Notes: generated by a model from the letters alone, not told the origin. Positions 17,484 to 37,137 are shown, counted from the stretch's first letter. The stretch: 64,000 bases of DNA from Minisyncoccia bacterium (GCA_041740795.1 JBGSLH010000008.1:15860-79859); one strand, 5' to 3'. Numbers and translations are program-made.

Positions 17484-17554
17484 TGCCCGATCGTCTAATG
17501 GTAGGACTGCGGTTTTTGGTACCGTCTATCGAGGTTCGAGTCCTTGTCGGGCAG
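17484..17554 (+). tRNA. tRNA-Gln (anticodon TTG)
   Basis: Acceptor TGCCCGA/TCGGGCA, anticodon stem GCGGT/ACCGT with loop TTTTGGT (UUG), T-arm CGAGG-TTCGAGT-CCTTG, discriminator G. Close resemblance to enterobacterial tRNA-Gln. Confidence 0.7.
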
Positions 17555-17674
17555 CTATTGACAGCTAGCTCAAATATGTTGTGTAATTAGAGCGCTCAAG
17601 TTGCGTTGATTTTCATTATGATTTTCTGCTTCTGTGGAGGAGTTGGACATTTAGTTTAAAGTGTTAAGATTTAA

Positions 17675-18823
17675 TTGATGAATAAAACAGAAATAATTTC
17701 TAAGCATTTTTCTAACATCGAAGGAGTGTTATTTGGAAAAAAAGAAATAGGAAAAAGTTTATGGGATCTATGGTATCACCCAACTATAAGATTTTTATGG
17801 CAGCAAGATTTTGATGAAAATAATGAAGTTTGGTATAGGGAAGTAGATTTATTGCAACTGGCAAAAGATGATTTATTTTTAGATATAAGGAAAAGTATGT
17901 CTTTTGTTGTGCAACAAGAATTAACTAAAATAGACGAGCTCGATCAAGATAATTCAAAGAGCAATTACTACTCCATCTTAGTACGTATATTTGATTTGGA
18001 AGATGAAACAGATGAGAATGTATGTTTATTTCTTGATCAAATTTTTCAGAATGAATTTAAAAAAAATGAGAATGACCCACTTTTACTCTGTATTTACGGA
18101 GGATATCAGCAATGGTTGTTAAGAAGGATGGGGAAGAAAGCAAAAGCTGATCAAACAGACTTCTCAAGTGTTCCTTGGAACAGAATTATTTTACCCAAAA
18201 ATTATAAATTTGCTCTGGAATATTATGAGAAAGCACTTTCTTTCGACCCTGATAATTATGTAATTTTAGGACTTATCGGGTATGATTTAGGATTTCATTT
18301 AAACCACGAGCAACACGAAGACGCTATAAAACTTTATGATAAATCTTTAGGAATTAATCCAGAAAATAAATACATACTTTTTTACAAGGCTAAGTGGCAT
18401 AAAGAACACAATGAGAAAGAAGAAGAAATTAATTGTTACATTCGTATTTTAAAGATTGATCCTGATAATCTTGTAATCTGTAAATTGCTGGCTGAAACTC
18501 TTCTTTCAGTGAACAATAAAATAGATGCCTTCAAATATTATGAAATAATAATTTCTAATCTTGAAATCCAGAAACAATTTTTAGCGTTGCATCCTGAGAT
18601 ACTTTTAGATATTTGGCCATTATTGAAGGAGTTTAATAGGAAAGACCAATCACAAATTTATTTCGATTATTGGCTTTCTTCAAAAGGAATTGATTTGTTG
18701 TTTAATTCGACTAAATTGGCACCCTTGTATTCAAAAAATAAGATAGAGAATATTCAGAATATTATTTTAAAGTTAAATGAGCAAAAAGTAGATTTTTTAG
18801 ATTTCAAAAACAACATGTTATAA
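17675..18823 (+). CDS. TPR-repeat protein
   Basis: Repeated A..Y..AL..DP.N TPR-like units. Very AT-rich codon usage. Confidence 0.5.
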   Translation: MMNKTEIISKHFSNIEGVLFGKKEIGKSLWDLWYHPTIRFLWQQDFDENNEVWYREVDLLQLAKDDLFLDIRKSMSFVVQQELTKIDELDQDNSKSNYYSILVRIFDLEDETDENVCLFLDQIFQNEFKKNENDPLLLCIYGGYQQWLLRRMGKKAKADQTDFSSVPWNRIILPKNYKFALEYYEKALSFDPDNYVILGLIGYDLGFHLNHEQHEDAIKLYDKSLGINPENKYILFYKAKWHKEHNEKEEEINCYIRILKIDPDNLVICKLLAETLLSVNNKIDAFKYYEIIISNLEIQKQFLALHPEILLDIWPLLKEFNRKDQSQIYFDYWLSSKGIDLLFNSTKLAPLYSKNKIENIQNIILKLNEQKVDFLDFKNNML

Positions 18824-18887
18824 TGAACATTATTATGTAATTAGAATGCTCTAATTGTGTTGCTTTGTTTTAATATATAATTTATAT

Positions 18888-19079
18888 ATGAAAAAATATC
18901 ATTCAATTAAAAACATGACCACGTCGGATTGGGGTAAGGCTGCTTTGACTGGTTTATTAGCAGGTCTTGTTCCTCGTTATGACATAGGAGAAATTTGGAT
19001 TGTACTTCTTAACACTGCAACACTATTGGGACTCATGTCTCTTTTTATTTGGATTTACAGGAAAATTAAAAAGATATAA
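18888..19079 (+). CDS. small hypothetical membrane protein
   Basis: Two hydrophobic helices. Start taken at MKKYHS inside track ORF 18855..19079. Confidence 0.3.
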   Translation: MKKYHSIKNMTTSDWGKAALTGLLAGLVPRYDIGEIWIVLLNTATLLGLMSLFIWIYRKIKKI

Positions 19080-19139
19080 AGCTATTTCATCTGCTTTAGT
19101 CATATAGAGTTTCACTACAAAATATTCCATAATTGGAAT

Positions 19140-20450
19140 ATGAATGAAAAAAATAAATATTGTATATATGCACGTAAATCAATGGAAGCTGAAGAACGTC
19201 AGGCAATTTCTATTGACTCACAATTAAATGAAATGAAGAATATTGTTGAACGTGAAAGCTTATCAGTTGTGGAAATAAAATCAGAATCTCACTCTGCAAA
19301 GTATTCTGGAGCCAGACCAATCTTTGCAGAAATGATGAATGATATAGAAGAGGAAAAATACAATTCTATACTTACTTGGAATCCAGATAGATTAAGTCGT
19401 AATGCAGGCGATCTTGGTTTATTAGTCGATCTAATGGATAAGGGTAAATTATTAGAGATAAGGACTTATGGACAAGTCTTTAGTAATTCACCAAATGATA
19501 AGTTCTTATTGATGATTTTGTGCTCTCAGGCAAAGCTAGAAAATGATAATAAAGGTATAAATGTTAAAAGAGGATTAAGGACTAAGGCAGAAATGGGCCA
19601 GTGGCCGTGCTCATGTGCTCCTATAGGGTATTTAAAATCAAATAAGGTAAATGAGGGTGGAATTGTATTTGTTGATGAAAAAAGAGCTAAGATAATTAGA
19701 AAATCTTTTAGAAAAATCGCTTATGAGAATATCTCAATTTATGACTTAGTTAAGTGGCTAAAAGAAATAAACTTTATTCATCACACAGGTAAACATGTTG
19801 GTTACAGTATCACTCAAGCAATGATACATAATCATTTTTATTACGGTAGATTTGAATTCCCTAAGAAATCTGGGATTTGGTATAAAGGAGCTCATAAACC
19901 GATTATTACCAAAAAACTATTTAATGATGCACAAGAAGCAATTGCACAGTGTGAAAGAAAAAAGAAATATAGATTATCCAAGACAGCACCTTTTGCTTTT
20001 TTGAAAATGATTCGTTGTGGTAATTGTGGGTCAATTATATCTGCACAGGAGAAATATAAAATATTAAAAGGTAAAGGAGGAGAAGTTGTGTATAGGTATT
20101 ATACTTGCAGTCGTAGCAGAAATAGAGATTGTAGAGAAAGAATTATTAATGAAGAAACTCTTATGAAGGAGTTGTATAAAATTCTCGATAAGGTCGAAAT
20201 TGATTTAATAGGAATGAAAGACTTTTTAGATTCAGAGATAGAAAGATTTTATAAAATTCAATCTTTCATTGATAAAAAAGAACATAAGAAAAGGAATAAT
20301 CATAAAAAAGAATATGATTTGCGAAAGTACGCAAAAACTATTTTTCAAGAGGGTCGAATAGATGAAAAAAGGGAGATACTGAAAAATCTAAAAGGTAGAT
20401 TAATTTTAAAAGATAAGAGGGTATATTTAGACAAAGTTCCAGATATTTAG
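19140..20450 (+). CDS. large serine recombinase (resolvase/invertase N-terminal domain + recombinase domain + zinc ribbon)
   Basis: Catalytic Ser region YARKS, the ILTWNPDRLSRNAGDLG and KFLLMILCSQAKLENDNKGINVKRGLR motifs, a C-terminal CGNCGS...C..SR zinc ribbon and a coiled coil. Confidence 0.85.
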   Translation: MNEKNKYCIYARKSMEAEERQAISIDSQLNEMKNIVERESLSVVEIKSESHSAKYSGARPIFAEMMNDIEEEKYNSILTWNPDRLSRNAGDLGLLVDLMDKGKLLEIRTYGQVFSNSPNDKFLLMILCSQAKLENDNKGINVKRGLRTKAEMGQWPCSCAPIGYLKSNKVNEGGIVFVDEKRAKIIRKSFRKIAYENISIYDLVKWLKEINFIHHTGKHVGYSITQAMIHNHFYYGRFEFPKKSGIWYKGAHKPIITKKLFNDAQEAIAQCERKKKYRLSKTAPFAFLKMIRCGNCGSIISAQEKYKILKGKGGEVVYRYYTCSRSRNRDCRERIINEETLMKELYKILDKVEIDLIGMKDFLDSEIERFYKIQSFIDKKEHKKRNNHKKEYDLRKYAKTIFQEGRIDEKREILKNLKGRLILKDKRVYLDKVPDI

Positions 20451-20493
20451 ACTGTAGATTGTGTTGTAGTATAAAACAACAAATAGTGTTAGG

Positions 20494-20709
20494 ATGAGTA
20501 TTATGAAAGAAGATACTAGAAAACTTGGTGATAATCTTAAAACAATTAGGATTAAAAAGAATATTACTCAAATTGAGATAGCTAAGAAATTAGGGAAAGA
20601 TCGTTCTTTTGTTAGTAATATCGAAAACGCAAAAACCAACCCAACTCTTTCAACTATTACTAATCTTGCTAAGGTTTTAGGTGTTTCAGCTAATGAATTA
20701 TTAAAATAA
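20494..20709 (+). CDS. XRE/Cro-type HTH regulator
   Basis: A 71-aa HTH_3 protein. Its stop is 1 nt before the start of the 1629-aa gene. Confidence 0.7.
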   Translation: MSIMKEDTRKLGDNLKTIRIKKNITQIEIAKKLGKDRSFVSNIENAKTNPTLSTITNLAKVLGVSANELLK

Positions 20710-20710
20710 T

Positions 20711-23700
20711 ATGCAAAAAGGAATAGACAATGGTATAAAACTATTTGAATATTTAGAAAAACTATCTCTGCTTAATACTAATATAAGAAGTAATGTAAAG
20801 AATTTATCTAAGGAAGAAGAAGAATTTAATTTAGAAGATAAAAACTTTTTGCCTATATTAGATAAAGTGTTTCTGAAAAATAGAGATTTAGAATTAGAAA
20901 AACCAGAAGATTTATTTTTATCAATTGAAAGATATAAAATTGAAAAACCTCCAAAATTGCCGAAAGAACTTGAAAAATGGATTGATTTTGAATCTATCAG
21001 TTTTATTAAACCAGAACCTAGAGAATTTTTGGTTTCGGTAGAGAAATTTAGTGATAATTCAGAAAGAGAAAATGCTTTTGAATCAATTGACTTAAATTCA
21101 AAAAAAGTCGATCCGATAATTAAAGATTGGGTTACAAAAACAGATAATGACACCTATGAAATGATCATAGAGAAGCCCAATAAAGCTTATTTTAAAGATT
21201 ATCCTGAATTACATAAATTATATAAAGATTGGATTGAATTAAAATGGGAGAAATGGAAAGAAAAAAATAATGAATATTTTATATCAAATCAAGCATATGA
21301 TAGATTTTATTCTCTTAGGTCTTTCTTAAAAACCGAATCAGATAGCTATGATCTTCTGTGGGCACATGATATTTTGACTTGGAAAAAAAACAGTAAAGAG
21401 GTTTATCATCCTACTATATTTACCCCTGTTGTTTTGGAGTTTGATCCTGATAGAAATATAATATCAATAAAAACAGAACAAAATTCAAAGACATTTTTTG
21501 ATGTTTCTTTTGTAAGAGAATCTATGGATGAAAATAGTACAAATCTAGCAGATATTGATTCTTTAGCTGAAAGAATCAATAAGAAAATTATTGAGGGAGA
21601 TTTTAATGTTTGGGATTATAAGATGATACATAAATACCTACAACAATTAGTTCATTATATATCCCCAGATGGTGAGTCTAGATATAAGGATAGAGGTTTA
21701 GATATACAGGTAACTGCACACCCGATTTCATTCAATAGTCATCATTTATTTTTACTGAAAAAAAGCGGAAAAAGTTGGGCAGATTATGCAAAAAAAATAC
21801 AAGAAGATATCGCTAAGAATAAAAAATTGACTCCCTTTTTAGAGGATCTAATTTTTGATGATGAGAAAAAAATAGACGAAACAGATAAAGAAGTCGAAAA
21901 AAACGATTCTGGTTCAGATGAAATAACAGATGGAGAACTTTATTTTCCTTTACCATATAATGATGAACAAAAAAGAATTGCAAATCAAATTGAATCAAAT
22001 TATGGTTCAGTTGTACAAGGTCCTCCTGGAACTGGAAAAACTCATACAATTGCAAACTTGATATCAAGATTTCTTGCATTAGGTAAAACTGTATTAGTTA
22101 CATCTCAAACAGGACAAGCTCTCTCTGTTTTGAAAAATAAGATCCCAAGTGAAATAAGAAGCATGGTTGTTTCTCAAGTCGAGTCTGATTCTAGAAATAA
22201 TGACTTGCAATCTTCTGTATCAGAAATAAATACAATGTTGTCAGACAATATTAGATTTACTGATGATAAAAGAGAAAAAGTAGAAAAAGATGTTCAGATC
22301 GTGAGAGAAAAAATTGCTCAAAAAAATAATGAATTTGAAAAAAAATCTTTATTAGATTCGAGAGAAGAAAAAACGATTGAATCTGAAAAGTTTTCTCCTA
22401 TTACTGCTGCAAAATATGTAACCTCATTTATTAATAATGATAAATTTAAAATCTTAGATGAAATAAATCACAATAGGGAATTACCAGTCTCTCAGTTACA
22501 GATTGATAATTACATATCAATATTAAGAAATTCAGATAATGAAATTTGGGATTTTGTAAAATTGGATACAATCCCTACGTTAGAACATCTTCCAAGAATT
22601 GAAACTTTAGAGAGGTTGTTTGAACTGAAGAATGATTTAGATAAGGCAGAAATTAAATTATTTAAAGAATATGTGCCAGATATAGAAGAATTAGAAAAAC
22701 TTAATGACGTTGAGCAGTATATAGAGGAATATAATTTAAATCTAGAAAAAAGTAAATCGTTTAAAGATTTTTTGAAAGAGACAGAGTTCTTTAAAAGAAA
22801 TGAAATTACAGAAGATGAAATTTTTGATAAAAAAAAAGAAGATATTATTTTTGAGATTCATGATTTATTAAAAAAAACAAAAGAGACATTGATGTCATTT
22901 GGCGAGGAATATGAAAAAGAGCTTTTTAATATTATAAAAAGTGATGGACAAAGAAGAAAATGGGAAACTGCCATATCTAAAATAAAAGAAATGCTTAGTA
23001 TGTACGAGGAATTTGATAGTCTTGTGTTAGGTAAAAAGATAGAGGTTTCTAAAGACTATAATGTTAATTTTGTTTTAACTTTAGATATTATTTCAAAACT
23101 ATCTGAACAAGCAGTAAATAATGGAGATAGAGTAAAAAAGGGCATAGGATTATTATTTGATCAGGGTGCAAGAAAAATTATTAAAAATATAAAGATTAAT
23201 AATAAAGAAATAAATACCTATGATGATATGCTGGTATTGAATGCATATTTTTCAAAAATTAAGATAGAAGACGATTTAAGAAATATTTGGGAACAGACTT
23301 TTCAGGTAATGGTTAACAAGAAGACTTTTTCTGATCCATTTAATGTTGTTGATTTTGAAAGTTCTCTGTCTTCTATTGATAGAATTGTTTCTTTTGAAAA
23401 TTTCAATTCCAAACTAAAAAAAGATTTAGAGAATCTCAGCTTATTCGAAGATATTAATATATCTAGCTTACATTTTGTAGAGGAAGCAATTAATATTTTT
23501 AGTAATTTTATATCAGTATTCAGAACTGAAGAATATAGTAATCTTATTGACAGTGTTGCTGAAGATTTAAAAAGAGACAATTCACATCAAAAAACACTGT
23601 TACTTTCAAAGCAAATAAAAGTAATGGATATTGAAAATATAAGGCCTTTAAAAGAGGAATTAAAGGATTTAAACAAGAGAAAAGAATTATCAGTAGAATA

Positions 23701-25600
23701 TTCAAAACTATATGAAGATGTGTTTTCTACTGAAATGAAAAAAATTAAATCTAATAAAAATAATCATAGAGATGTAATATTGTATATTCAAAATATTGAA
23801 GAGGGTAATGCTGAAGATATAAAAAAGTTCTATAAAACAATTCCAGATCTTATTGATAAGCAAAACAAATCTGTAGAAATAAAGTTGATAGAAGATTCTT
23901 TGAAAAATGATATCCCTAAAACCATAGATGAAATTAAAACTTCAATAAAAAAAGATATATTAATTAACTTTGATATAAAAGAAAGTTGGAAGTGTGGAAG
24001 ATTAATCAGTTGGCTTGATGAATTACATTCTGGAAACTCTGTTACTCAAATTAGTAAGGAATTATATATACTAAAAAATCAGGAGAGAGATTTAGTAAAA
24101 AAGTTAGTCGAAGTTTCCTCTTGGATACATCTTAAGAAAAGAGTTACTAAAAAACAGAAGGAGGCTTTGGCATCATTCGCGCTGAGTATGAAAAAATATG
24201 GTAAAGGTATGGGTAAATATGCTTCAAAACACCTTAAGGATGCTAAGGATGCTCTTGAAATAGGAAAAGACGCTGTCCCTGTTTGGATTATGCCAATTAA
24301 CACAATTCATCAGCTATTTCCGAATCCTGAATCTGGAATGTTTGATATTGTTATTTTTGATGAGGCTAGTCAGGTAGATACGAGAGGTTTAAATATCGCA
24401 TACATAGGTGAAAAACTTCTTGTAGTTGGAGATGATGAGCAGGTTAGTCCAACGTCTTTTACAACACAAAGTAAGGTTACAGATTTGATAACACGATACA
24501 TATCTGACGTACCAAATAGCCATCATTTCTCTAATACCTCTAGTCTTTTTGATATTTCTAAAATAAAAATGACTGACATTATAACTCTGACAGAGCACTT
24601 TAGATCTATAGAAGAAATAATTGGTTTTAGTAATGCATTATCCTATAACGGTAAATTGAAAGTCTTAAGAGATCAGCTTCCTGAATATAGATTAGACCCT
24701 GTCTTAGAGCCTATTTTTGTAGATAATGGCTTTGAAGAAACTAATGCTCAGGTCAATAAACCAGAAGCTGAAGCAATAGTAAGTAAATTAAAGGAAATGC
24801 TTCAGGATGAGAAATATAATGAAACAGATGAAGATGGTAAAACAAGACCAATGACTTTCGGTGTTATTTCTTTGCTTGGTAAAGAACAATCCAAACTTAT
24901 AATGAAATTAATTAGTGAGAATATCTCCTCTAAAGAAATTGAAAAGAGAGAAATTAATTGTGGAGACCCTTACGTATTTCAAGGGGATGAAAGAGATATT
25001 ATATTGATATCAATGGTTAAGGCGCCATCATTGAGTGATTCAAGTAAAAATATTTCTCCTTATACTGTATCTAAAAAAGAATATAAGCAAAGAGTTAACG
25101 TGGCCATGTCTAGAGCAAAAAATAAAATGGTTCTTTTTCACTCAATACCAAAAGATAAGTTATCTAACCCAGATGATTTAAGAAAGCAAATTTTAGATTG
25201 GTTTTATAATCATAAAACCGAAGAGAGAAAAGCAGGACTTCAAATGATTAGAGAAGAAGTTGAAAGGGGTAGGGCATCAGAATTTGAATACGATGTTGCA
25301 GAAATAATAATCAATAAAGGATATAAAGTAATCCCTCAGTATGAGGTTGCAGGATATAGAATAGATTTAGTTGTTCAAGGAGAAAAATCAAAACTTGCTG
25401 TAGAATGTGATGGAGATAAATATCATAATCAGTTTGATAAATGGCACGAGGATATGGAAAGGCAACAAATTTTAGAAAGATCGGGCTGGACATTTTGGAG
25501 ATTGTCTGGAAGTTCTTTCTATAAACATAAAGAGTTGGCTCTAGATAGTTTGTGGAAAAAGTTGGATGAAATGAACATTAATCCGTCGTTAGGTAATTAA
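20711..25600 (+). CDS. giant SF1 (Upf1/DNA2-like) helicase with C-terminal DUF559/Vsr-like endonuclease domain (Hhe-like architecture)
   Basis: Walker A VVQGPPGTGKTH. A long coiled-coil insertion. Helicase motifs IVIFDEASQV, LLVVGDDEQVSP and FQGDERDIILISMV. The C-terminus GYRIDLVV...LAVECDGDKYH is a DUF559 (restriction-endonuclease-like) signature. The ~400-aa N-terminal region is unassigned. Confidence 0.75.
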   Translation: MQKGIDNGIKLFEYLEKLSLLNTNIRSNVKNLSKEEEEFNLEDKNFLPILDKVFLKNRDLELEKPEDLFLSIERYKIEKPPKLPKELEKWIDFESISFIKPEPREFLVSVEKFSDNSERENAFESIDLNSKKVDPIIKDWVTKTDNDTYEMIIEKPNKAYFKDYPELHKLYKDWIELKWEKWKEKNNEYFISNQAYDRFYSLRSFLKTESDSYDLLWAHDILTWKKNSKEVYHPTIFTPVVLEFDPDRNIISIKTEQNSKTFFDVSFVRESMDENSTNLADIDSLAERINKKIIEGDFNVWDYKMIHKYLQQLVHYISPDGESRYKDRGLDIQVTAHPISFNSHHLFLLKKSGKSWADYAKKIQEDIAKNKKLTPFLEDLIFDDEKKIDETDKEVEKNDSGSDEITDGELYFPLPYNDEQKRIANQIESNYGSVVQGPPGTGKTHTIANLISRFLALGKTVLVTSQTGQALSVLKNKIPSEIRSMVVSQVESDSRNNDLQSSVSEINTMLSDNIRFTDDKREKVEKDVQIVREKIAQKNNEFEKKSLLDSREEKTIESEKFSPITAAKYVTSFINNDKFKILDEINHNRELPVSQLQIDNYISILRNSDNEIWDFVKLDTIPTLEHLPRIETLERLFELKNDLDKAEIKLFKEYVPDIEELEKLNDVEQYIEEYNLNLEKSKSFKDFLKETEFFKRNEITEDEIFDKKKEDIIFEIHDLLKKTKETLMSFGEEYEKELFNIIKSDGQRRKWETAISKIKEMLSMYEEFDSLVLGKKIEVSKDYNVNFVLTLDIISKLSEQAVNNGDRVKKGIGLLFDQGARKIIKNIKINNKEINTYDDMLVLNAYFSKIKIEDDLRNIWEQTFQVMVNKKTFSDPFNVVDFESSLSSIDRIVSFENFNSKLKKDLENLSLFEDINISSLHFVEEAINIFSNFISVFRTEEYSNLIDSVAEDLKRDNSHQKTLLLSKQIKVMDIENIRPLKEELKDLNKRKELSVEYSKLYEDVFSTEMKKIKSNKNNHRDVILYIQNIEEGNAEDIKKFYKTIPDLIDKQNKSVEIKLIEDSLKNDIPKTIDEIKTSIKKDILINFDIKESWKCGRLISWLDELHSGNSVTQISKELYILKNQERDLVKKLVEVSSWIHLKKRVTKKQKEALASFALSMKKYGKGMGKYASKHLKDAKDALEIGKDAVPVWIMPINTIHQLFPNPESGMFDIVIFDEASQVDTRGLNIAYIGEKLLVVGDDEQVSPTSFTTQSKVTDLITRYISDVPNSHHFSNTSSLFDISKIKMTDIITLTEHFRSIEEIIGFSNALSYNGKLKVLRDQLPEYRLDPVLEPIFVDNGFEETNAQVNKPEAEAIVSKLKEMLQDEKYNETDEDGKTRPMTFGVISLLGKEQSKLIMKLISENISSKEIEKREINCGDPYVFQGDERDIILISMVKAPSLSDSSKNISPYTVSKKEYKQRVNVAMSRAKNKMVLFHSIPKDKLSNPDDLRKQILDWFYNHKTEERKAGLQMIREEVERGRASEFEYDVAEIIINKGYKVIPQYEVAGYRIDLVVQGEKSKLAVECDGDKYHNQFDKWHEDMERQQILERSGWTFWRLSGSSFYKHKELALDSLWKKLDEMNINPSLGN

Positions 25601-25609
25601 TATTAAAAC

Positions 25610-26542
25610 ATGTCTTTTTTAAATAAATTAATAAAAATATTAGAACAAAATAATAAAAAAAGTGTTTTAAAAACGAAAACACCTGAAAACCATTCTGGCG
25701 ATATAGGGGTTTTCACTGCTGATAATGATAAAGATTTTAAATTACTACTATCTTTGTATAAGAAAAATAAAGAAGATGAAATTGATATAAAGTTTGTTGT
25801 TAAAACAGAAAGTCCACAAGCGACGGAACACATCTGTCCATATTGTAAGACCGTCCATGAATTTAAGGCTAGTCGAGCAAGAAAATGTCCAAACTGCTCT
25901 AATAAAATGGTTGTTAGACAAGGACTTTTTGTTACAGAAGATCAAGCTGAAAATATAGAAAAAAAGATTAGTGAATTTTATAATAAACAAGGGATTATTA
26001 GTCAGGTAGGATTTTCATTAGAATCCGCACAAGACCATAAGATTAATAAAGATAAGATTTATTACTACCGTTCCTTAGGTGAATCTTTTAGGTTTATGGC
26101 ACAGATAGAAAATAAAAAAGATGAAAAAGGATTTTCTTTTTGGGATAAAGCTTGGGGTTATTATAATAATGCAAGACTTCAAGAGATGAAAACACTAAGA
26201 AAAGACAGAATGGAATTCAGTTCCTTGCCTGATATTTTTTGGGATATGTCTAAAATGTTATTAGACCAAGGTAATCATGAAGATAGTGAAAAATATAAAA
26301 AACAAGCCCTCACACAAGCATGTATGACTATCGGTGAATCAATAAGATTAGGGGCTGAATTATATTTTATTACAGATATATATGAATTCTCAAAAAAAAT
26401 AATAAATGATTTATCTATTGATGAAGAAGAATTTTTGAATATAGCTGAAAAAGCTTCAGAGAGCATGAGATTAAGTGGTTCTGGTCTTTCAAAATATAAT
26501 AAAAAAATCAAAGAATTAAGCGAATATGAGGTTATTCAATAA
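25610..26542 (+). CDS. hypothetical protein with Cys4 zinc ribbon
   Basis: CPYCKT...CPNCSN. Starts 10 nt after the helicase gene. Its 3' end overlaps the recombinase gene on the opposite strand. Confidence 0.45.
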   Translation: MSFLNKLIKILEQNNKKSVLKTKTPENHSGDIGVFTADNDKDFKLLLSLYKKNKEDEIDIKFVVKTESPQATEHICPYCKTVHEFKASRARKCPNCSNKMVVRQGLFVTEDQAENIEKKISEFYNKQGIISQVGFSLESAQDHKINKDKIYYYRSLGESFRFMAQIENKKDEKGFSFWDKAWGYYNNARLQEMKTLRKDRMEFSSLPDIFWDMSKMLLDQGNHEDSEKYKKQALTQACMTIGESIRLGAELYFITDIYEFSKKIINDLSIDEEEFLNIAEKASESMRLSGSGLSKYNKKIKELSEYEVIQ

Positions 26543-28838: not shown

Positions 28839-28864
28839 ATTTTACTTAATGTTACAATAAAAAT

Positions 28865-29320
28865 ATGGAAAAAAATAAACAAAAAACAGGATTAAGTGAT
28901 GGAAATAGAAAATTTATTGTCTTCGTTTCTTTTGTTCTTTTGTTTATATATGCACCACTGTTTCCTGATAATATTATTATTAGAAGCTTAATCTTTTTCG
29001 GGACGCCTGTATCGATCTGGTTGTTTTTAAAGTATCAGGGAAAAGATTGGTCAATGAATAAGATGGATAATGATACTTTAACAAGTGTGATGTTCGGTAT
29101 AATTGCTGGAATGTTTTTACTGAGTAGTTACTCATCATTTTCTGCAAAATATCACACGGAATGCGATCAATATGCAAGGTCTGGAAAAGGGGAATATGAG
29201 TGCGTTGGAGATTATAAAACAGCTAAAGGTCCAGATAGAGGTGAAGGTATTATGAAAATATTATTTGCAGCAATTGCAATTAAACTTGCTCTTGCTAAAA
29301 AAGAGGAAGATGAATCCTAA
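28865..29320 (+). CDS. hypothetical membrane protein
   Basis: Three hydrophobic helices. No family recognised. Confidence 0.4.
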   Translation: MEKNKQKTGLSDGNRKFIVFVSFVLLFIYAPLFPDNIIIRSLIFFGTPVSIWLFLKYQGKDWSMNKMDNDTLTSVMFGIIAGMFLLSSYSSFSAKYHTECDQYARSGKGEYECVGDYKTAKGPDRGEGIMKILFAAIAIKLALAKKEEDES

Positions 29321-29575
29321 TCTAAATTTAAATTTGAATAAACTTACAAATAAAAAAGTTAAATTAACATATCTATGTAAAAAGTCTTCAGAAGAAAGTA
29401 CTTTGAGATTAGATAAAGCATTTGATATCTTATTTGAGTATGTTTTCGAGAAGATTGATGATTCAAAAAATACTAAATCACGGTAAACTGATTGCTTAGC
29501 AAATCCCTGATTTGCGATATAATGCAATGAGATAGTATATCTTTCGATATATTATAGAAGAATACAATTCAAAAA

Positions 29576-29676
29576 GGCCTATCAAGCATAAAGAACCCGT
29601 CATGGGGTTTTGCTTGATAGGCCGCATCAGGAAACTGGTGTGAAGGATTTCGATCCTTACCCGTGGCGGGCTTTTT
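29576..29676 (+). other. structured intergenic element (13-bp perfect stem enclosing an inner hairpin, a tRNA T-arm-like hairpin, terminator-like stem + T-run)
   Basis: ggcctatcaagca...tgcttgataggcc (13/13). aaggatttcgatcctt palindrome. cccgtggcggg followed by cttttt. Confidence 0.35.
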
Positions 29677-29712
29677 GTGTATTCAATTAATAATTAAGAC
29701 CTATCAAGTAAA

Positions 29713-30171
29713 ATGGAAAATTTAAATACAAAAGATACTAAAAACTGTTATCAGTGCCTTTCAGAAATGCCAAAACGAGCACGAAAATGTGCAAAATGTG
29801 GAAGTAAGCAACCAAGTCAAATACTCAAGGTTGCAGCAATAATTATCGGACTTATCGTTCTTTGGACAATGATTACATCTTCATTTGAAGACAGTGCTCC
29901 AGTTGTAACAGAAACATATAATCCGCCGGTTCCTGTTCAACAATCAAGTTTTGAACTTGGGAAGTATAAAGTTGAATCAGAAGAGTTTGCATATATTAAT
30001 CCTAAAGAATTAAATCTTTGGAAGTCATATAGTGATAGAACAAAAGTTGGAACAGTATCTGAAGGGAGTGTTATTGAAGTGATTGAACACGATTCTAAAA
30101 ATGACTACTGTAAAATCAAGACAGACAAGAGTACAGGTTGGGTAGCATGTGGATGGCTAGTAAAACAATAA
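29713..30171 (+). CDS. zinc-ribbon / TM / SH3b-like domain protein
   Basis: N-terminal CYQC...CAKCG ribbon, one TM, and a C-terminal GWVACGWL typical of bacterial SH3-like domains. Confidence 0.4.
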   Translation: MENLNTKDTKNCYQCLSEMPKRARKCAKCGSKQPSQILKVAAIIIGLIVLWTMITSSFEDSAPVVTETYNPPVPVQQSSFELGKYKVESEEFAYINPKELNLWKSYSDRTKVGTVSEGSVIEVIEHDSKNDYCKIKTDKSTGWVACGWLVKQ

Positions 30172-30633
30172 TCACTTCTTCTTAGTGTAAAAAGGTTTCC
30201 ATCTATCAAGCATTGCGCGAGCTTTTTGTTTGATTCTCTCTCTATCTTCTTTTGACTGTCCAAATTTGATTTGATTTAAATCGTTCATCATCCTGTAGTG
30301 CTCCTTAATCAATTCTCGTTCAAATACATTCACGCCTGCACCTCGATGCATAAAAGGTTTCCTGTATGCATGATGCCTATTGGATAACCAAAATTTACTC
30401 GTTCCAATGTCTCCTTTTTTAATCCCATTTAGAATATTACTTTCTGCCACGTCACTGACCAAACTACTTCCAATTTCTATTGCATCTGTTGCTTGTGTCT
30501 TAAACTTAGAATCTTCTTTCATCCAGCGATAAAAAGTTTGTCTTGATATTCCAACTTTCGTACACGCAATTTGTACAATCGGAGTTGACTCTAGTTCTCT
30601 AAGAATTTTCTTTTGTAAATTATCTTTTTTCAC
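30172..30633 (-). CDS. HTH protein resembling phage terminase small subunit
   Basis: N-terminal HTH (VGISRQTFYRWMKED) and a basic C-terminal region. Its 5' end overlaps the upstream methyltransferase gene. Confidence 0.4.
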   Translation of the reverse strand: MKKDNLQKKILRELESTPIVQIACTKVGISRQTFYRWMKEDSKFKTQATDAIEIGSSLVSDVAESNILNGIKKGDIGTSKFWLSNRHHAYRKPFMHRGAGVNVFERELIKEHYRMMNDLNQIKFGQSKEDRERIKQKARAMLDRWKPFYTKKK

Positions 30634-31909
30634 AACGATTAATCTTAGCTTTTTGACCAGTCATCTTTTCATATCTTTTAATAATGAGGTCACAGAAAAT
30701 AGGTTCAAGTTCACATCCGTATACTCGTCTTTGGAGTAATTCACCTGCAATTAATGTACTTCCTGATCCCAGAAAACTATCAAGGATTATGTCATTTGGC
30801 TTGGTGCATCTTTTCATTGCTTTTTCATGCAGTTGAGGTGGTTTTGAAGTTGCATGCTGATAGTCTTGTGCAGATAATCTTTTAGCAGTCCAAACATCTA
30901 TAAAGTCATCTACTTCATCAAGTAGATTATTACCAGTAGTCAGTTCTTTATTCATAACCTCGTTTAGATTATTGATTGTATGTGCAAGATATGGTTTTCC
31001 ACGAACACCATACGTCACAGGTTCATATACCTTGTTGAAGGCAACGGAAGGAACTGGGTTCTGATTATTCTTGAGCCACAAACATACGCGCTTGTTTGAT
31101 ATCCCAAGTAGGCGATAGAGTTCTTGCACAATTCCGATATAAATTTGATCAGACCAGTAGAACACATGAATATCTTTCTTACATACTTTTAAAGCACATT
31201 CTATACTGTCTTTAAGAAATTTATAATATTGATCAAATGTTCTCTTATCTTTCACGTCTCCACCATATGATTGTTTTCCTCCAATGCCTCCGTTGTAATC
31301 AACTTCAATATTGTAGACAGGGTCTGAATAAATCATCGATGCTTTTTCATTGCCAAATAGTTTTTTTAGAATTTCTGGGTCAGTTGAATCTCCACAGATA
31401 ATCCTGTGCTTTCCAAGAGTAATAATGTCACCCAATCGAATTTTAGGCTTTTTAATTTTTTGTAACTCTTTTTCAACATCAAAGTTATCATCGGTAACCT
31501 CTTTGTCTTGGTCCCAAAAATCTGCAATTTCAATCTCATCAAAACCAGCAAATTCTAAAGTTTTGATATCAAATGATTTGAGTAAATCAAAATCCCAATC
31601 ACCACCAAGTTTGTTGGATGCAATGAGATATTGCTCTGACTCTTTTTTAGTTAGTTTTCGATTTGGAATTCGAACATCAATTATTTCATCACCTCGACCA
31701 AGTAGGTGAAGGGCTTGTAATCTTTGGTGACCGGCCAGAATTACGCCATTAATATCAATGGCAGGTATTTCCACTAGATTGAATTTAGTGAGACTCTTTT
31801 TAATGTCAGACATTTGCTTATCTGTAATCTGTCTTGGATTTATTTTTTGAGGTGTTAAATCAGACACTTTTCTTTGAACTGTAGTCCATGTTAGTTTTTG
31901 TATATTCAT
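30620..31909 (-). CDS. ParB-like nuclease domain fused to N6-adenine/N4-cytosine DNA methyltransferase (phage/plasmid type, no cognate REase seen)
   Basis: ParBc motif ILAGHQRLQA. MTase motif IV-like SDPVY and motif I ILDSFLGSGST. Confidence 0.8.
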   Translation of the reverse strand: MNIQKLTWTTVQRKVSDLTPQKINPRQITDKQMSDIKKSLTKFNLVEIPAIDINGVILAGHQRLQALHLLGRGDEIIDVRIPNRKLTKKESEQYLIASNKLGGDWDFDLLKSFDIKTLEFAGFDEIEIADFWDQDKEVTDDNFDVEKELQKIKKPKIRLGDIITLGKHRIICGDSTDPEILKKLFGNEKASMIYSDPVYNIEVDYNGGIGGKQSYGGDVKDKRTFDQYYKFLKDSIECALKVCKKDIHVFYWSDQIYIGIVQELYRLLGISNKRVCLWLKNNQNPVPSVAFNKVYEPVTYGVRGKPYLAHTINNLNEVMNKELTTGNNLLDEVDDFIDVWTAKRLSAQDYQHATSKPPQLHEKAMKRCTKPNDIILDSFLGSGSTLIAGELLQRRVYGCELEPIFCDLIIKRYEKMTGQKAKINRCEKR

Positions 31910-32436: not shown

Positions 32437-32442
32437 GATACT

Positions 32443-32583
32443 TTAACTTTTAGAACCTCGTTTATGTTTTTGAGATAGGGCACTTCCTGCTAACCTTTTT
32501 GTGGTTTTAGAAGTGCTTTTACTCCTCAGTGCTTTACTTGCAGTTCTTGCAACTTTGGCACTCGTTGTTTTTCTGTGACCCAT
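32443..32583 (-). CDS. small basic Ser/Thr/Lys-rich protein (46 aa), not in ORF track
   Basis: MGHRKTTSAKVARTASKALRSKSTSKTTKRLAGSALSQKHKRGSKS. It lies 6 nt upstream of 32062..32436 on the same strand. Confidence 0.25.
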   Translation of the reverse strand: MGHRKTTSAKVARTASKALRSKSTSKTTKRLAGSALSQKHKRGSKS

Positions 32584-32612
32584 ATTGTTCTTGGGTTAAC
32601 TAATAATGATGA

Positions 32613-32625
32613 TTGAAATATTCAA
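32613..32625. promoter_or_regulatory. palindromic candidate operator TTGAAATATTCAA in a divergent promoter region
   Basis: A perfect 13-bp palindrome between the minus-strand small gene and the LexA-like gene. Confidence 0.3.
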
Positions 32626-32713
32626 TCTATTCTTATTTTACCAAGGTTGTTTGTCAAAAGTCAAGACAATATATTTCTGAGCATTGCAAAAGTAAAGTGT
32701 AAGTGATATTATT

Positions 32714-33367
32714 ATGTATATGGAAGCAAAAAATCTGCATATAAAACAACAACTAATACTTTCAATGCTTGAATCTGGAAAAGATTTAGGAGCGATGACT
32801 CTTCGTGGTATTGCTGAAGATATTGGAGCTCCTGGGAAACCTCAAATTGCCAAACATCACTTAGATCAACTCGAAAAAAGGGGATTGATACAGATGAACC
32901 TAAAAGAGAATTTTATTAAACTTGTAAAAAAGGGATATAACAAACCTGTTGTGAGTCCTCTGTACTCTCTGCCAGTTATGGGATCTGCCAATTGCGGTTC
33001 TCCTACAATTTTTGCTGAACAGAACATTGAAAAATATTTGAAAGTTTCTTCTAGTAGATTACCAAGAAACAAAAAAAGTCTCTATGTATTAATTGCTAGT
33101 GGATCGAGTATGAACGATGTTTCTATTGATGGTAAAAATATTGAGAACGGTGATTTTGTGTTAGTAGACAGTAATTATAAAGACTACAAAGATGGAGATG
33201 TTGTTGTTGCTGTTGTGGATGGATTAGCAACAATTAAAATATATTTCAAAAGAGGTGATGAAATAATTTTAAAACCAAAATCAACAGAAGATCATCTCCC
33301 TGTTTATCTCCATGAGGATGATGAGTTTGCGTTTAATGGAAAGGTTGTAGGAGTTATTAAAAATTGA
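32714..33367 (+). CDS. LexA-like repressor (LexA-type winged HTH + S24 peptidase)
   Basis: LexA N-terminal domain pattern (LTLRGIAEDIG...HHLDQLEKRGLI). S24 Ser/Lys dyad context (IASGSSMNDVSI...ATIKIY). The stop is 1 nt before the next gene. Confidence 0.75.
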   Translation: MYMEAKNLHIKQQLILSMLESGKDLGAMTLRGIAEDIGAPGKPQIAKHHLDQLEKRGLIQMNLKENFIKLVKKGYNKPVVSPLYSLPVMGSANCGSPTIFAEQNIEKYLKVSSSRLPRNKKSLYVLIASGSSMNDVSIDGKNIENGDFVLVDSNYKDYKDGDVVVAVVDGLATIKIYFKRGDEIILKPKSTEDHLPVYLHEDDEFAFNGKVVGVIKN

Positions 33368-33368
33368 T

Positions 33369-34514
33369 ATGCCGATTACTAATGTAAAAGAAATTAAGGA
33401 TGCTCGAGGTATTGATCCAAATACAAAAGCCTTGTTATTTGCAAAAACTGCAGGTAGGTGTGAGTTGTGTAATAAATTGACCATTAAAGATGTAACAACT
33501 GGAGTGAATTTAATTTGGGGAGAAATGGCCCACATATATGCGTTTAGTGAGGGTGGTCCTCGAGCACAGGTAGATAAACTTAGGAAAAATGATATTGAGA
33601 ATTTACTTCTGGCTTGTCCTAATTGTCATGAAAAAATTGATAAAGGAGTTCAGGAAAAATATTATACAGTTAAATATCTACAAGAATCTAAAAAGAATCA
33701 TGAAGATAGAATAAAATTAGCAACAAGTTTTTCGTCAGAACAAAAAACTAAAGTATTGAAAACGGTTGCAAATATTAATAATGAAATAGTAAAACTTTCT
33801 AACTTCGATATGTTCCAGGCCTTAATGGTAGAAAAATTACTCACTTCTGAAGAAAATTGCGAAGAAATTAATTTTACACAAAATTCAGGTCTTAATAATC
33901 AGACATATTGGAAATCAAAAAAACAAGATATTGATGAAATTATAAAAAATTTTATTTCTGATTTGAAAAGAGAGAAGTTTGAACATATTTCAATTTTCGG
34001 GATTGGACCAATTCCACTTCTGATGTATTTAGGTTCAAAATTAGACAATAAGATTAATACAAAAGTATTTCAAAGACACCGTGATGGTGAGAGTTGGAGC
34101 TGGAAGAAGGGAATACCAAAAGCTGAATATAATTTTAGTGTAAAGAAAAAGGGCTCTGACAAAAATAAAGTTTCACTTCTACTGTCTCTTTCTGGAACTA
34201 TAAATCGTAACCTACTCCCAACTAATGTCAAAGAAAATTATATGTACGAATTGTCTCTTAAGGGTAGTCCTAATTATAATTTTTTGCAAACAGAAAAAGA
34301 CCTATTTCATTTTGAAAAAGATTTCACTACGGCTATAAGTAAAATAAAAAATAATCACCCTAATTTAAAAAGCATCGATGTTTTCCCGGCTGTCCCAGCA
34401 CCTGTTGCAATTATATGTGGTAGGTCCTTAAATAAAAACTCTGACCCCAAATTAAGGATTTTTAATACATCCAACAAGAAGAAGTTCGTTTATTCATTAA
34501 CAATTAATAATTAA
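33369..34514 (+). CDS. HNH endonuclease with ~270-aa C-terminal domain (Cap5-like HNH-SAVED effector architecture)
   Basis: HNH motif CELCNK...AHIYAFSEGG...NLLLACPNCHEKID within the N-terminal 95 aa. The C-terminal domain is unassigned by eye; its size and position fit SAVED. Confidence 0.55.
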   Translation: MPITNVKEIKDARGIDPNTKALLFAKTAGRCELCNKLTIKDVTTGVNLIWGEMAHIYAFSEGGPRAQVDKLRKNDIENLLLACPNCHEKIDKGVQEKYYTVKYLQESKKNHEDRIKLATSFSSEQKTKVLKTVANINNEIVKLSNFDMFQALMVEKLLTSEENCEEINFTQNSGLNNQTYWKSKKQDIDEIIKNFISDLKREKFEHISIFGIGPIPLLMYLGSKLDNKINTKVFQRHRDGESWSWKKGIPKAEYNFSVKKKGSDKNKVSLLLSLSGTINRNLLPTNVKENYMYELSLKGSPNYNFLQTEKDLFHFEKDFTTAISKIKNNHPNLKSIDVFPAVPAPVAIICGRSLNKNSDPKLRIFNTSNKKKFVYSLTINN

Positions 34515-34517
34515 AAT

Positions 34518-35408
34518 ATGGAAACTAATAAATATTTAAAAGAAGTACTAAAACAGGAAGCATTAGAAGACGACGGTCCTGAGCTAAAAGAATTACGTTC
34601 TGAGCGAGAAAAAATAGAGAAAATAATCTTAGAAAAGTTTTCTGAGTCTAGCCCATCTATTCGTTATGGTGGCTCAAAAGCAAAAGGTACAATGATAAAA
34701 AGTAGTTTTGATTTAGATATCACTGTGTACTTTGATCATAATGACACTAAGTGTGGAAGTAGTTTGAAAGAGATCTTTGATAATGTTACAGAGGCATTTT
34801 CCGAGACTTATTTACCTGTACCCAAAAACGCATCGATACGATTAGAGTCAAAGGGGGATAATAATATGTATACACATATAGATATTGTTCCTGGACGTTT
34901 TATTTCAGATAATAAGGAAAATGAAGATGTCTTTATTCATCAAAATACAGGAGAAAAAGGTTTTTTAAAGACAAATCTTAATAAGCACAAGGAATTCATT
35001 AGTAAAAGTGGTTTGCGAGAAGAGATAAAACTTGCAAAGATTTGGAAGATTAAAAACAATCTCGAAGTTAAAACTTTTGTTTTAGAGTTGTTACTAATCA
35101 AAATTCTAAAAGAATATGTTGGGAAACCTTTGGAGGATAACATGATTTTGTTCTGGGAAACCTTAAGGGACAAGATTAATAATATTACTATCATTGATCC
35201 TGCTAATTCTAGTAATGATTTAACTGATATTTTAAATAAAAGTAAATATACACTATGTAGTAGTGCTTCAACAGCATTGTATTATGTAAACTCAGATTCT
35301 TGGAAAAGTATTTTTGGAGAAGTTAATAATTTGGAAAAAGTAAATATTGAGGATAGTACACCAATGGCCATCACTAGTACTCCGAAACCATGGTCTTCGA
35401 TTTCATGA
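34518..35408 (+). CDS. minimal Pol-beta-type nucleotidyltransferase (CD-NTase/SMODS-like)
   Basis: GS...DLD (RYGGSKAKGTMIKSSFDLDITV) and a third acidic motif HIDIV. 3-nt gap from the upstream gene. Confidence 0.55.
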   Translation: METNKYLKEVLKQEALEDDGPELKELRSEREKIEKIILEKFSESSPSIRYGGSKAKGTMIKSSFDLDITVYFDHNDTKCGSSLKEIFDNVTEAFSETYLPVPKNASIRLESKGDNNMYTHIDIVPGRFISDNKENEDVFIHQNTGEKGFLKTNLNKHKEFISKSGLREEIKLAKIWKIKNNLEVKTFVLELLLIKILKEYVGKPLEDNMILFWETLRDKINNITIIDPANSSNDLTDILNKSKYTLCSSASTALYYVNSDSWKSIFGEVNNLEKVNIEDSTPMAITSTPKPWSSIS

Positions 35409-36124
35409 GTATGGCGCTATATAAATTTAGTGAGGAGGAGGTAGAATCTGTTTTTAAGAAATATAAAAAACTAAAATTGAACAAAAACGGTTTTATTGAA
35501 GGTGAAATATTGTTAAATCACACTTATGATGACATTCATATAAAAGATAAATTTCAGATAGTTATAGGTGCTGATGAAGAGTATCCTAAAACCACACCTC
35601 GATTAATGGAAGTCGGAAAGAGAACAGAGAAAATTGCTCAGAAATATAATATAAAAGATTTTAGGGATTTACATAATAATTCAAAAGATGGTGGAACTGT
35701 ATGTTTGGGGAGTCCTCGTGAAATTAGAAATAAATTTCCAGTTGGTTCAGATCTAGTGGTCTTTGTCGATGATTTGGTAATACCTTATCTATTTGGATTT
35801 AGTTTTTATGAAAAACATAAAAAATGGCCTTGGGGAGAATTAAGTCATGGTATTCTGGGAATTTTGGAAGACTATCTGGATATCAAAGATGTATCTAGAA
35901 CTGATATAGATAATGTATTATTGTTGATTAAGAGGAGTCCAGATTGGATTGATTACAATAAACAAATAAAAAAACTCAGTCCACAAAAACATTGTATCTG
36001 TGGCTCGTGCAGACCCTTTTGTAAATGTCATTCTGATGCATGGAAAGGTTTAGAAAAACTTGTTTGTGATATGAAAAAATTTAATCTAAATGTAAAATCT
36101 GCACTAAGTCAGATTAAGATTTAA
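35390..36124 (+). CDS. E2/UBC-like protein with C-terminal Cys-rich zinc ribbon (CBASS type II-short Cap2-like)
   Basis: HNN...GGTVCLGSP resembles the E2 HPN...G.ICL active-site region. C-terminal HCICGSCRPFCKCH. Overlaps the NTase gene end. Confidence 0.45.
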   Translation: MVFDFMSMALYKFSEEEVESVFKKYKKLKLNKNGFIEGEILLNHTYDDIHIKDKFQIVIGADEEYPKTTPRLMEVGKRTEKIAQKYNIKDFRDLHNNSKDGGTVCLGSPREIRNKFPVGSDLVVFVDDLVIPYLFGFSFYEKHKKWPWGELSHGILGILEDYLDIKDVSRTDIDNVLLLIKRSPDWIDYNKQIKKLSPQKHCICGSCRPFCKCHSDAWKGLEKLVCDMKKFNLNVKSALSQIKI

Positions 36125-36728
36125 TTTTCTTATTTAATTTCATATTTTTCATCTCTTCTCTAACCCATTTTCTGTGTTTTTTATCTCTATGTCTATCATA
36201 AGATTTTCTTATTGGATTAAACTTGATTATTAGATTAGGGTTTTCTTTTTTAAGGAAAATATACTCGTGAACTTTACCATCTTCATTTAATATCTCTCTT
36301 GCAACTAGTTTGCCTTCTCGAACATATTTTTTAACCGTTTGTATATGAAGACCTAAATCACTTTTTAATTGCCAAGTTTTTATATAACTATCACTGTTGT
36401 GACAAATAAAACTAGGTACAACACCTGTGTCTAGTGCTTTCTGACAAAGTGAACATTTATTGCCATTCCAATCATACCAACCGTTGACCTCGTCGATACC
36501 ACATCCACATATGATACAACTATATTGGCCATCAACTGGAAATCCTTTAGGCTCTGTCTTCAGACGTTTTTTCTTTCTTTGGTCTCTAATTGCGATATCA
36601 AAAAGGAGATCTGCTAAACCTATTAAATTATTGGTGGCTTCTTGTGCTTCAGAATCACTCATTTCTTTACCTTCCTTTTTCTTATATAACTTTTTTATTT
36701 CTTCTGTTAATTTCTCAGATGATTTCAT
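36114..36728 (-). CDS. hypothetical Cys-rich (zinc-binding) protein
   Basis: CIICGCG...C.LC plus a basic C-terminus. No family recognised. Confidence 0.35.
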   Translation of the reverse strand: MKSSEKLTEEIKKLYKKKEGKEMSDSEAQEATNNLIGLADLLFDIAIRDQRKKKRLKTEPKGFPVDGQYSCIICGCGIDEVNGWYDWNGNKCSLCQKALDTGVVPSFICHNSDSYIKTWQLKSDLGLHIQTVKKYVREGKLVAREILNEDGKVHEYIFLKKENPNLIIKFNPIRKSYDRHRDKKHRKWVREEMKNMKLNKKIKS

Positions 36729-36811
36729 AAAGTATTAAAGGTTACTTTGTAATGAGGTACTACTTTATATTTTATAATGGACTCGATATTTTAATCCAGA
36801 CATGCTAGTGT

Positions 36812-37018
36812 TTGGGGCATATGAGGGAAACAAACACATTATCTATAATTCTAAACATAATACTGATACCTATTGTGATAATTAGTAAGGTTATTGCTTT
36901 GATATATAAGGGTATAAAGAGGGTAGTATTTGATATGCTTAAACATGTATATGGCAAAATAATTGCTCTCCTTGTGGCCTTTGTAGTGATTTGGATAGTT
37001 ACATATCTCTTTCGCTAG
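36812..37018 (+). CDS. small membrane protein
   Basis: Two hydrophobic helices. Confidence 0.3.
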   Translation: MGHMRETNTLSIILNIILIPIVIISKVIALIYKGIKRVVFDMLKHVYGKIIALLVAFVVIWIVTYLFR

Positions 37019-37114
37019 GCAGTGTCACTTTTGTCACTTTTTATAGGTGCTCAAGTCGCGTCATTTCAAAATTTAAAGATTGTACCAACCATCAAGCAGG
37101 GCTTGGTGGTGGTT

Positions 37115-37137
37115 GGTTCGAGCTCTTGTCGGCCAGC
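37115..37137 (+). repeat. degenerate direct copy of the tRNA-Gln 3' end (candidate attR)
   Basis: ggttcgagctcttgtcggccagc vs tRNA 17533-17555 ggttcgagtccttgtcgggcagc: 20/23 identical, same orientation. Confidence 0.4.

Follow-up and report, generated by a model that had tools for sequence, protein, structure and literature searches.

What occupies the DNA past a tRNA-Gln gene in a Minisyncoccia genome, where does it end, and which kind of recombinase put it there? These questions are raised by a stretch of 64,000 nt (GCA_041740795.1 JBGSLH010000008.1:15860-79859; hereafter the window, with positions counted from its first nucleotide), in which tRNA-Gln(ttg) is followed by AT-rich DNA carrying two large serine recombinase genes, named LSR1 and LSR2. 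We consider it probable (about 0.7) that the segment 17556-37137 represents a single integrative element, from a family common in Patescibacteria, and that a large serine recombinase, most likely LSR2, inserted it as a circle at the 3' end of tRNA-Gln. A preliminary description of the stretch had proposed an island at this tRNA gene with its right end at 37115-37137, and related elements back both of these boundaries.

The tRNA gene was recognized by ARAGORN and by Rfam (tRNA, 54 bits). The flank to its left, comprising Dus, a holB-like gene, a YkuD-type transpeptidase gene and tRNA-Gln itself, is syntenic with contigs of metagenome-assembled genomes (MAGs) of Candidatus Paceibacterota/Parcubacteria, with a top protein identity of 74%. 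In the closest relative, L001 (related loci are cited by such numbers), all 72 of the 72 nt of the tRNA gene are the same and the DNA downstream differs. More generally, relatives with this left flank carry wholly different DNA past tRNA-Gln, and no homologue of the genes to the right of the tRNA was found downstream of tRNA-Gln in them; relatives that share these genes at this locus without size polymorphism were thus not encountered. Base composition changes at the same point. The guanine-plus-cytosine (GC) fraction is 0.43-0.47 over 1-17 kb, 0.29 in the kilobase past the tRNA and 0.25-0.35 for 18-42 kb, and the tetranucleotide distance from the flanking DNA climbs from about 0.2 to values of 0.43-0.71 inside the island, in agreement with the sharp drop reported earlier. 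Composition likewise falls directly past tRNA-Gln in the GC-rich relative L005. Because the relatives share nothing to the right of the tRNA and L005 has this drop, the tRNA-Gln locus is an insertion hot spot. MAG contigs such as L001 and L003 terminate at or directly past tRNA-Gln.

The right end of the element is marked by GGTTCGAGCTCTTGTCGGCCAGC at 37115-37137, a plus-strand sequence that shares 20 of its 23 nt, in the same orientation, with the 3' end of tRNA-Gln. It is the sole other match at three mismatches or fewer, the next-best ungapped match within the window having seven, and a second match arose in none of 100 shuffles, so that the repeat is better than chance. It had been described as a degenerate copy of the tRNA; instead, it closes a conserved module that consists, in this order, of GTGTCACTTTTGTCACTTTTT, an A-type box GCTCRAGTYGCGTC (37043-37064), CAGGGCTTGG and the tRNA-3'-like 23-mer, whose S-type form has the spacing of the tRNA. 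The module is conserved in L059, L072, L053, L015 and L005, and the loci diverge directly after CCAGCA. A profile built from the copies of other genomes only recovers 37102-37142 in the window. The motif at 37115 agrees with the copy in a distant genome (L015) at 24 of 26 positions vs 21 of 26 for the window's own tRNA, and in L053 and L005 the equivalent motif is strongly unlike the local tRNA. Since copies in distant genomes resemble it more than the resident tRNA does, we infer that the 23-mer is the end of an element-borne module that mimics a tRNA arm, rather than a fragment of the resident gene that was displaced and has decayed. Scans of IMG/VR with the S-type motif, the longer L-type motif and the left arm of the element gave zero matches; a loose module pattern gave 21, which were rejected as chance matches in unrelated coding DNA. 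In L141, a family member from IMG/VR, a whole tRNA-Ser(cga) gene comes after the module in place of the short tRNA-like motif (2185-2494, minus strand). In L142 (4050-4450) a GTGTCACTTTT unit forms a multi-copy, iteron-like array in both orientations.

At the left end, the arms of the window element and of L136 begin directly past the CAGC of two different host tRNA-Gln genes, and the arm in the window holds an A-type tRNA-3'-like box at 17586-17610. In view of this start in L136, of the tRNA identical to that of L001 and of the closer match of the 37115 motif to L015, the crossover was probably placed at or just after the discriminator/CCA position, and the tRNA would not have been split. The two ends recur together in related loci. 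L053 is a 16.5-kb contig that extends exactly from tRNA-Gln to the right-end module with a collinear gene order, and L059 and L086 agree with it. L120 has a 22/23 repeat beyond its recombinase gene, with a similarity that extends over about 48 nt and has the tRNA end at its centre; in L060 an exact repeat of 19 nt lies beyond the recombinase, along with a second, degenerate copy. Within the window, 34-nt direct repeats (17579-17612 and 18833-18866, 79% identical, with an A-type tRNA-3'-like box) bracket the single TPR gene that adjoins the tRNA.

Both recombinase genes are full length and keep their catalytic residues, including the serine of YxRKS, which is invariant in the recombinase alignment. 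Both products match the Pfam families PF00239, PF07508 and PF13408 (Resolvase, Recombinase, Zn-ribbon), and LSR2 aligns with the SPbeta (SprA) and TP901-1 integrases in the PDB. Homologues of LSR1 were found in L136 (86%) and in a complete Candidatus Nomurabacteria genome (67%). The principal comparison set comprised 80 metagenomic loci with LSR2 homologues (59-84% identity) obtained by a scan with the recombinase alignment, and these revealed a fixed geometry, with a strongly non-random placement of tRNA genes: 37 lie downstream of the recombinase stop codon (in 347 kb of DNA) vs 1 upstream (in 402 kb), and all 30 loci with a downstream tRNA have the first one on the strand opposite to the recombinase gene, 0.2-9 kb away. 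The window follows this pattern, at 9 kb. Ten loci terminate within 150 nt past that first downstream tRNA, as expected for a junction between core and variable DNA. The recombinase clades follow the type of tRNA (Gln, Ser, Glu, Trp). A holB-like left-flank gene is carried by L060, L111 and L129, the first of which also has Dus, which indicates that elements of this kind have inserted at this tRNA-Gln locus in related species, too. No match to a tyrosine integrase (Phage_integrase) was obtained among the principal open reading frames (ORFs) of at least 85 aa between 17.5 and 58 kb. The classical attL/attR signature of tRNA-targeted elements, as claimed earlier, is therefore borne out in its form, a tRNA gene with a same-strand fragment, but not in its usual machinery, as only large serine recombinases were found.

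The genes named in the preliminary description (two serine recombinases, Hhe-like and CBASS defence genes, ParB-methylase, TerS-like gene, S49 peptidase and regulators) were all recovered, and their coordinates are given in Table 1. The order typical of the family is tRNA, cargo, reverse-strand LSR2, TerS-like gene, ParB-methylase gene, divergent S24 repressor gene, cargo and right-end module. In related loci the TerS-like and ParB-methylase genes are on the recombinase strand and upstream of the recombinase; homologues of the 204-aa protein are also upstream of it in four loci, and in L086 this gene adjoins the right-end motif. Recombination directionality factors share no common signature; going by position, one might guess at the 204-aa terminal protein and the TerS-like helix-turn-helix (HTH) protein as candidates.

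Table 1. Features of the tRNA-Gln island and of the adjoining motif array in the window.
Feature	Position	Strand	Remarks
tRNA-Gln(ttg), putative attB left arm and attL	17484..17555	+	gene intact
Element left arm (P')	17556..17624	+	homologous to sequence past a different host's tRNA-Gln in L136; resembles L053 arm
TPR-repeat cargo gene	17675..18823	+	different gene in this position in L136
LSR1, full-length large serine recombinase	19140..20450	+	51% identical to LSR2; own family
Small XRE-type HTH gene	20494..20709	+	downstream of LSR1; conserved with L136; our own ORF reading
Variable defence slot: 1629-aa helicase-nuclease and 310-aa ORF	20711..26542	+	replaced in L136
LSR2, large serine recombinase, probable integrase	26532..27851	-	transcribed towards tRNA
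Lineage-specific insert: S49 peptidase, membrane protein, LOOT RNA, SH3 protein	27966..30171	+	
TerS-like HTH gene	30172..30633	-	backbone; in 37/80 loci
ParB-N6/N4 methylase gene	30620..31909	-	backbone; in 34/80 loci
S24/LexA-like repressor gene	32714..33367	+	divergent from backbone operon; conserved in 9 loci
CBASS cargo: HNH-SAVED effector, CD-NTase cyclase, E2-like protein	33369..36124	+	
204-aa Cys-rich protein gene	36114..36728	-	terminal gene adjoining right end; homologues in 4 loci
Right-end module (putative attR)	37020..37137	+	conserved, non-coding, ~120 nt
L-type junction motif (tRNA-3'-like, 5 extra nt)	37790..37825	+	then P'-like arm
L-type junction motif	40623..40658	+	overlaps GNAT gene stop codon
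L-type junction motif	41501..41536	+	89% identical to 40624 copy; then P'-like arm
S-type junction motif	42360..42389	+	A-type box before, 42294-42315
Degenerate L-type junction motif	43259..43294	+	
Degenerate L-type junction motif	44571..44606	+	last detected

The cargo of the element proved to be exchangeable. LSR1-HTH and LSR2 of the window are 80% identical in nucleotides to those of L136, whose host has a different tRNA-Gln gene, and the homology breaks exactly at the stop of the HTH gene (20710) and at that of LSR2 (26538). Between these points L136 has an MmeI-type restriction-modification (RM) gene, a helicase and T5orf172. The 1629-aa protein that takes this slot in the window combines a superfamily 1 helicase with an MTES_1575 nuclease, and only its C-terminal part gives the PADLOC matches, PDC-S37 and Hhe; L102 has a helicase-nuclease with 67% identity, convergent with the recombinase. 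The other slot holds a type II-like cyclic-oligonucleotide-based antiphage signalling system (CBASS), as called by PADLOC (cyclase 3.9e-69, SAVED-HNH effector 4.5e-145, E2 8.9e-41), in which no JAB/Cap3 gene was seen beside the trio, and L100 carries a CBASS trio in its other cargo slot. Given the swap in L136 and the genes in L102 and L100, defence genes are typical cargo of this element family. The genes of the lineage-specific insert had no homologue in the 80 related loci. Between its S49-peptidase block and the SH3 gene lies a LOOT RNA (Rfam RF03000) at 29534-29658 on the plus strand, scoring 55.5 bits vs a gathering score of 46.4. A frame in which an LSR gene and a small HTH gene precede variable defence genes and a convergent second LSR gene recurs in the window (19140-27851), in L136 (832-9492) and in L134 (1-2706), and the same succession is seen in the Candidatus Nomurabacteria genome, where the LSR and HTH genes are followed by a type I RM gene.

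Accordingly, the insertion may be pictured as follows. The last ~23 nt of the tRNA, from the T-loop to the discriminator, would serve as one attB arm, and the S-type 23-mer that closes the right-end module would be the look-alike arm of attP. Strand exchange at or just after the discriminator/CCA would leave the tRNA intact and place the look-alike arm 19.6 kb away as attR. The integrated element would then consist of a fixed backbone (LSR2, TerS-like HTH, ParB-methylase, S24 repressor, terminal 204-aa gene and right-end module) and two slots for defence cargo, one between LSR1-HTH and LSR2, with the helicase-nuclease, and one past the repressor, with the CBASS trio. The two recombinase genes are 6 kb apart and convergent around the first slot. 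Two tandem elements were also considered for this arrangement and rejected, as no junction motif was found near the LSR2 stop and the left arm is like that of L053. LSR1 was treated as internal because of this missing motif and because L053, with its similar arm, has only the LSR2-type gene; a second recombinase was present in 0 of the 80 loci.

Several observations weigh against this interpretation. LSR2 lies 9 kb from attL, which is the greatest distance seen in the family, and LSR1 is a second intact recombinase inside the element to which no sites are assigned. Canonical large serine integrases need an identity of only 2 bp between their sites, and their attP half-sites are 5 bp longer than the attB half-sites (PMC3783163). 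Here, the presumed attP arm at the right end has the same spacing as the tRNA arm, with no 5-bp attP/attB shift between them, the 5-nt-longer variant of the motif being present only at other junctions; moreover, such enzymes do not usually have attL and attR sites as nearly identical as those of L120. There is also no compositional step at 37137, and the right boundary is consequently placed by comparative evidence only. Finally, neither an excised circle nor an empty site nor a junction read turned up: the sole conspecific data are those of Logan SRR28170465, the only hit of exact-protein look-ups, and they have the same arrangement, with contigs interrupted at the tRNA and again at a palindrome of 27 nt.

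The form of the two ends would equally suit a classical tRNA island, in which tRNA-Gln was split by a tyrosine integrase and regained its 3' part from the element, 37115-37137 is the displaced and decayed host fragment, and the integrase gene has since been lost or acts in trans; the A-type boxes on either side of the core in the reconstructed attP are moreover like arm-type sites. We regard such an origin as very unlikely, because the scanned ORFs gave no Phage_integrase match, the 23-mer and the preceding ~100 nt are conserved in distant genomes that have a different tRNA-Gln of their own, the acceptor strand TCGGCCA of the 23-mer would not pair with the host 5' strand, and homology with L136 begins past the tRNA and not within it. 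It is similarly hard to believe that the tRNA-3'-like repeats act as RNA, either as small RNAs or as processing or termination signals. All copies are intergenic and on the coding strand of neighbouring genes, and weak acceptor-like pairing of GCUUGG with CCAGC is predicted, but RNAalifold found 9 pairs without covariation in seven modules (-4.6 kcal/mol), neither motifs nor module match Rfam, and the motifs occur only in islands by tRNA-Gln or in serine-recombinase elements, with none found in core contexts. An integron was rejected: there is no IntI or other tyrosine recombinase among the scanned ORFs, and the motifs, which are tRNA-like and repeated directly, have neither a supported hairpin nor an attC-like structure.

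Two further possibilities concern what the element is today. It could be a decayed prophage or phage satellite, transferred by packaging and still integrated by an LSR, as suggested by PHROG matches to a small terminase, a head maturation protease and a phage methylase, by the LexA-like repressor, and by the family members L141 and L143, which are listed as viral contigs in IMG/VR. This is doubtful, as the window element was found to have no genes for a capsid, portal, large terminase or tail, the S49 protease is without counterpart in the 80 related loci, and the TerS-like match is weak (Pfam E=1e-4) and could reflect a simple HTH protein. It is somewhat easier to imagine, although we still think it unlikely, that the region is a fixed, immobile remnant whose tRNA-like motifs are scars in decay that no longer serve any function. 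The motifs become more degenerate with distance, those at 43259 and 44571 scoring weakly, one gene of the array has homologues in core contexts without motifs, and no strain polymorphism was seen in SRR28170465. Two intact recombinases with conserved catalytic residues, and non-coding ends conserved across genomes beyond the expectation for neutral scars, argue against such a remnant.

Foreign DNA extends past 37137. The GC fraction is still 0.31-0.34 until ~42 kb, is intermediate until ~54 kb and dips anew at 56-58 kb; about 44.6, 54 or 58 kb are candidate right limits. A search for further tRNA-Gln 3' fragments returned six more tRNA-3'-like motifs (37790-44606), all intergenic and on the same strand, with no others in the window on either strand, so that the earlier suggestion of successive insertions past 37 kb agrees with both the motifs and the atypical composition, which reaches to about 54-58 kb. 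Together, the seven same-strand motifs (37113-44606) delimit units of one to three genes without a recombinase. They occur in an S form, with tRNA spacing, and an L form, 5 nt longer, both of which are also present in L018, L005, L015, L059 and L072, and two of the L motifs precede arms like the left arms found past tRNA-Gln elsewhere. The segment from 37138 to ~44.6 kb may thus represent an older pile-up of recombinase-less units by tandem accretion at the same hot spot. The 5-nt difference between S and L has the size of the outer-motif shift between attB and attP of serine integrases, but a simple assignment of the two forms to attB and attP does not fit the S spacing of the right-end arm. 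Mobile single-gene cassettes were also rejected: homologues of the gene at 40713-41510 are in core contexts (RuvB-X-YebC-RuvC; EF-P-X) with no motifs nearby, which gives no evidence of units moving on their own. Degenerate tRNA-3'-like motifs are present just past tRNA-Gln in relatives, too (L001, 7478-7778; L005, 3300-7710), and in L005 S-type and L-type motifs bracket genes without a recombinase. The first multi-gene unit of the window includes a 508-aa protein (37892-39418, plus strand) that has no family match; it carries the PD-(D/E)xK-like motif DLIIKQGDSFFFVEAKAK and may be a nuclease-type defence gene. Also within the array, a repeat of ~75 nt (39522-39598 and 43875-43950, about 75% identical) comprises the hairpin CCGAGCTGTCCAGCTCGTTTTTT and a promoter-like stretch.

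Two other structures were noted further to the right. A perfect 44-nt direct repeat (51467-51510 and 53492-53535) duplicates the 3' end of a DUF1295 gene and brackets glyoxalase and Mur-ligase-like genes; it has the look of a site-specific insertion into the end of a gene, independent of the others and recent. At 46552-46889, two copies of the 27-nt perfect palindrome (46552-46578 and 46842-46868), where the Logan contig of the same strain breaks, flank a 59-codon ORF (46631-46810) with 25 Met codons and MMxM repeats. It is just upstream of thioredoxin and a DsbD-MsrA-MsrB fusion and may be an oxidant sink or substrate with operator sites.

A defence island at a tRNA gene is ordinary; the class of its recombinase is the unusual part. 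The closest precedent is the serine-integrase islands at the transfer-messenger RNA (tmRNA) gene of Dehalococcoides. These ssrA islands, with the serine integrase DsiB, are low in GC, use the 3' end of a small stable RNA and have a direct repeat of ~20 nt, and their arrays include integrase-less units that were read as cis-mobilizable (McMurdie et al. 2011, PMC3146451). The window resembles them in being a low-GC island at a stable-RNA 3' end bounded by a direct repeat, with a reverse-strand module of large serine recombinase and ParB-domain gene on the attL side. The differences are that the target here is a tRNA (Gln, Ser, Trp, Glu and others) and not tmRNA, that a small DsiA-type partner is missing while this lineage has a second full-length recombinase, that cargo lies between attL and the integrase, that the right end is conserved over ~120 nt, and that the hosts are Patescibacteria. 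Staphylococcal cassette chromosome elements (SCC, SCCmec) are inserted by the CcrAB serine recombinases at the 3' end of a conserved gene, rlmH, without inactivating it and with flanking direct repeats; ccrA and ccrB are adjacent in one operon, and SCC composites contain recombinase-less pseudo-elements. Two serine recombinases, 3'-end insertion that spares the gene and a composite array are thus shared with SCC, and the tandem array of target-3'-end repeats with integrase-less units is common to SCC, the ssrA islands and the window. In contrast to ccrA and ccrB, LSR1 and LSR2 converge on a cargo slot from a distance, and their target is a tRNA gene rather than rlmH.

Islander islands have a tyrosine integrase and a split-and-restored tDNA, and tandem arrays of them occur (Hudson et al. 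2015, PMC4383910). The tRNA gene and the same-orientation 3' fragment that delimit the island, as well as the tandem array, are like these, whereas the tyrosine integrase was not found here and the tRNA was apparently not split. With the large serine integrases of phages (A118/LI, SPbeta SprA, TP901-1, phiC31) the window recombinases share the domain set and, for SprA and TP901-1, sequence similarity; the known phage enzymes, however, rarely or never use tRNA genes, and the tRNA and right-end arms here are without their 5-bp outer-motif shift. Mageeney et al. (2020; TIGER, PMC7192596) placed 14 of their 297 serine-integrase cases at a tRNA or tmRNA gene, a use that to their knowledge had not been reported before and that in their view needed experimental proof. 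In the literature, no report of such serine-integrase tRNA islands was found for Patescibacteria.

A bolder reading, which we put forward as speculation and hold to be rather improbable in full, is that a very large serine-integrase clade of Patescibacteria is specialised on tRNA 3' ends and uses a tRNA-end mimic as one arm. The mimic would recreate the landing pad, and tRNA-Gln would thereby become an open-ended gene-capture platform on which defence genes and single-gene units are stacked and swapped, the S and L motifs being half-sites of the attB/attP type. Recombinase homologues at E<=1e-50 numbered at least 7,900 among the matches listed (8,000 scored; few with a named source).

The field works by the rule that islands at tRNA genes are made by tyrosine integrases (PMC4383910), to which a well-populated family with a fixed geometry of recombinase and tRNA would be a clear counter-example. 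The family could also supply serine integrases with natural targets at tRNA ends, which may interest genome engineers. For the hosts themselves, it shows a route by which the ultra-small symbiotic Patescibacteria gain and swap defence, with CBASS, helicase-nucleases and RM systems carried in defined slots.

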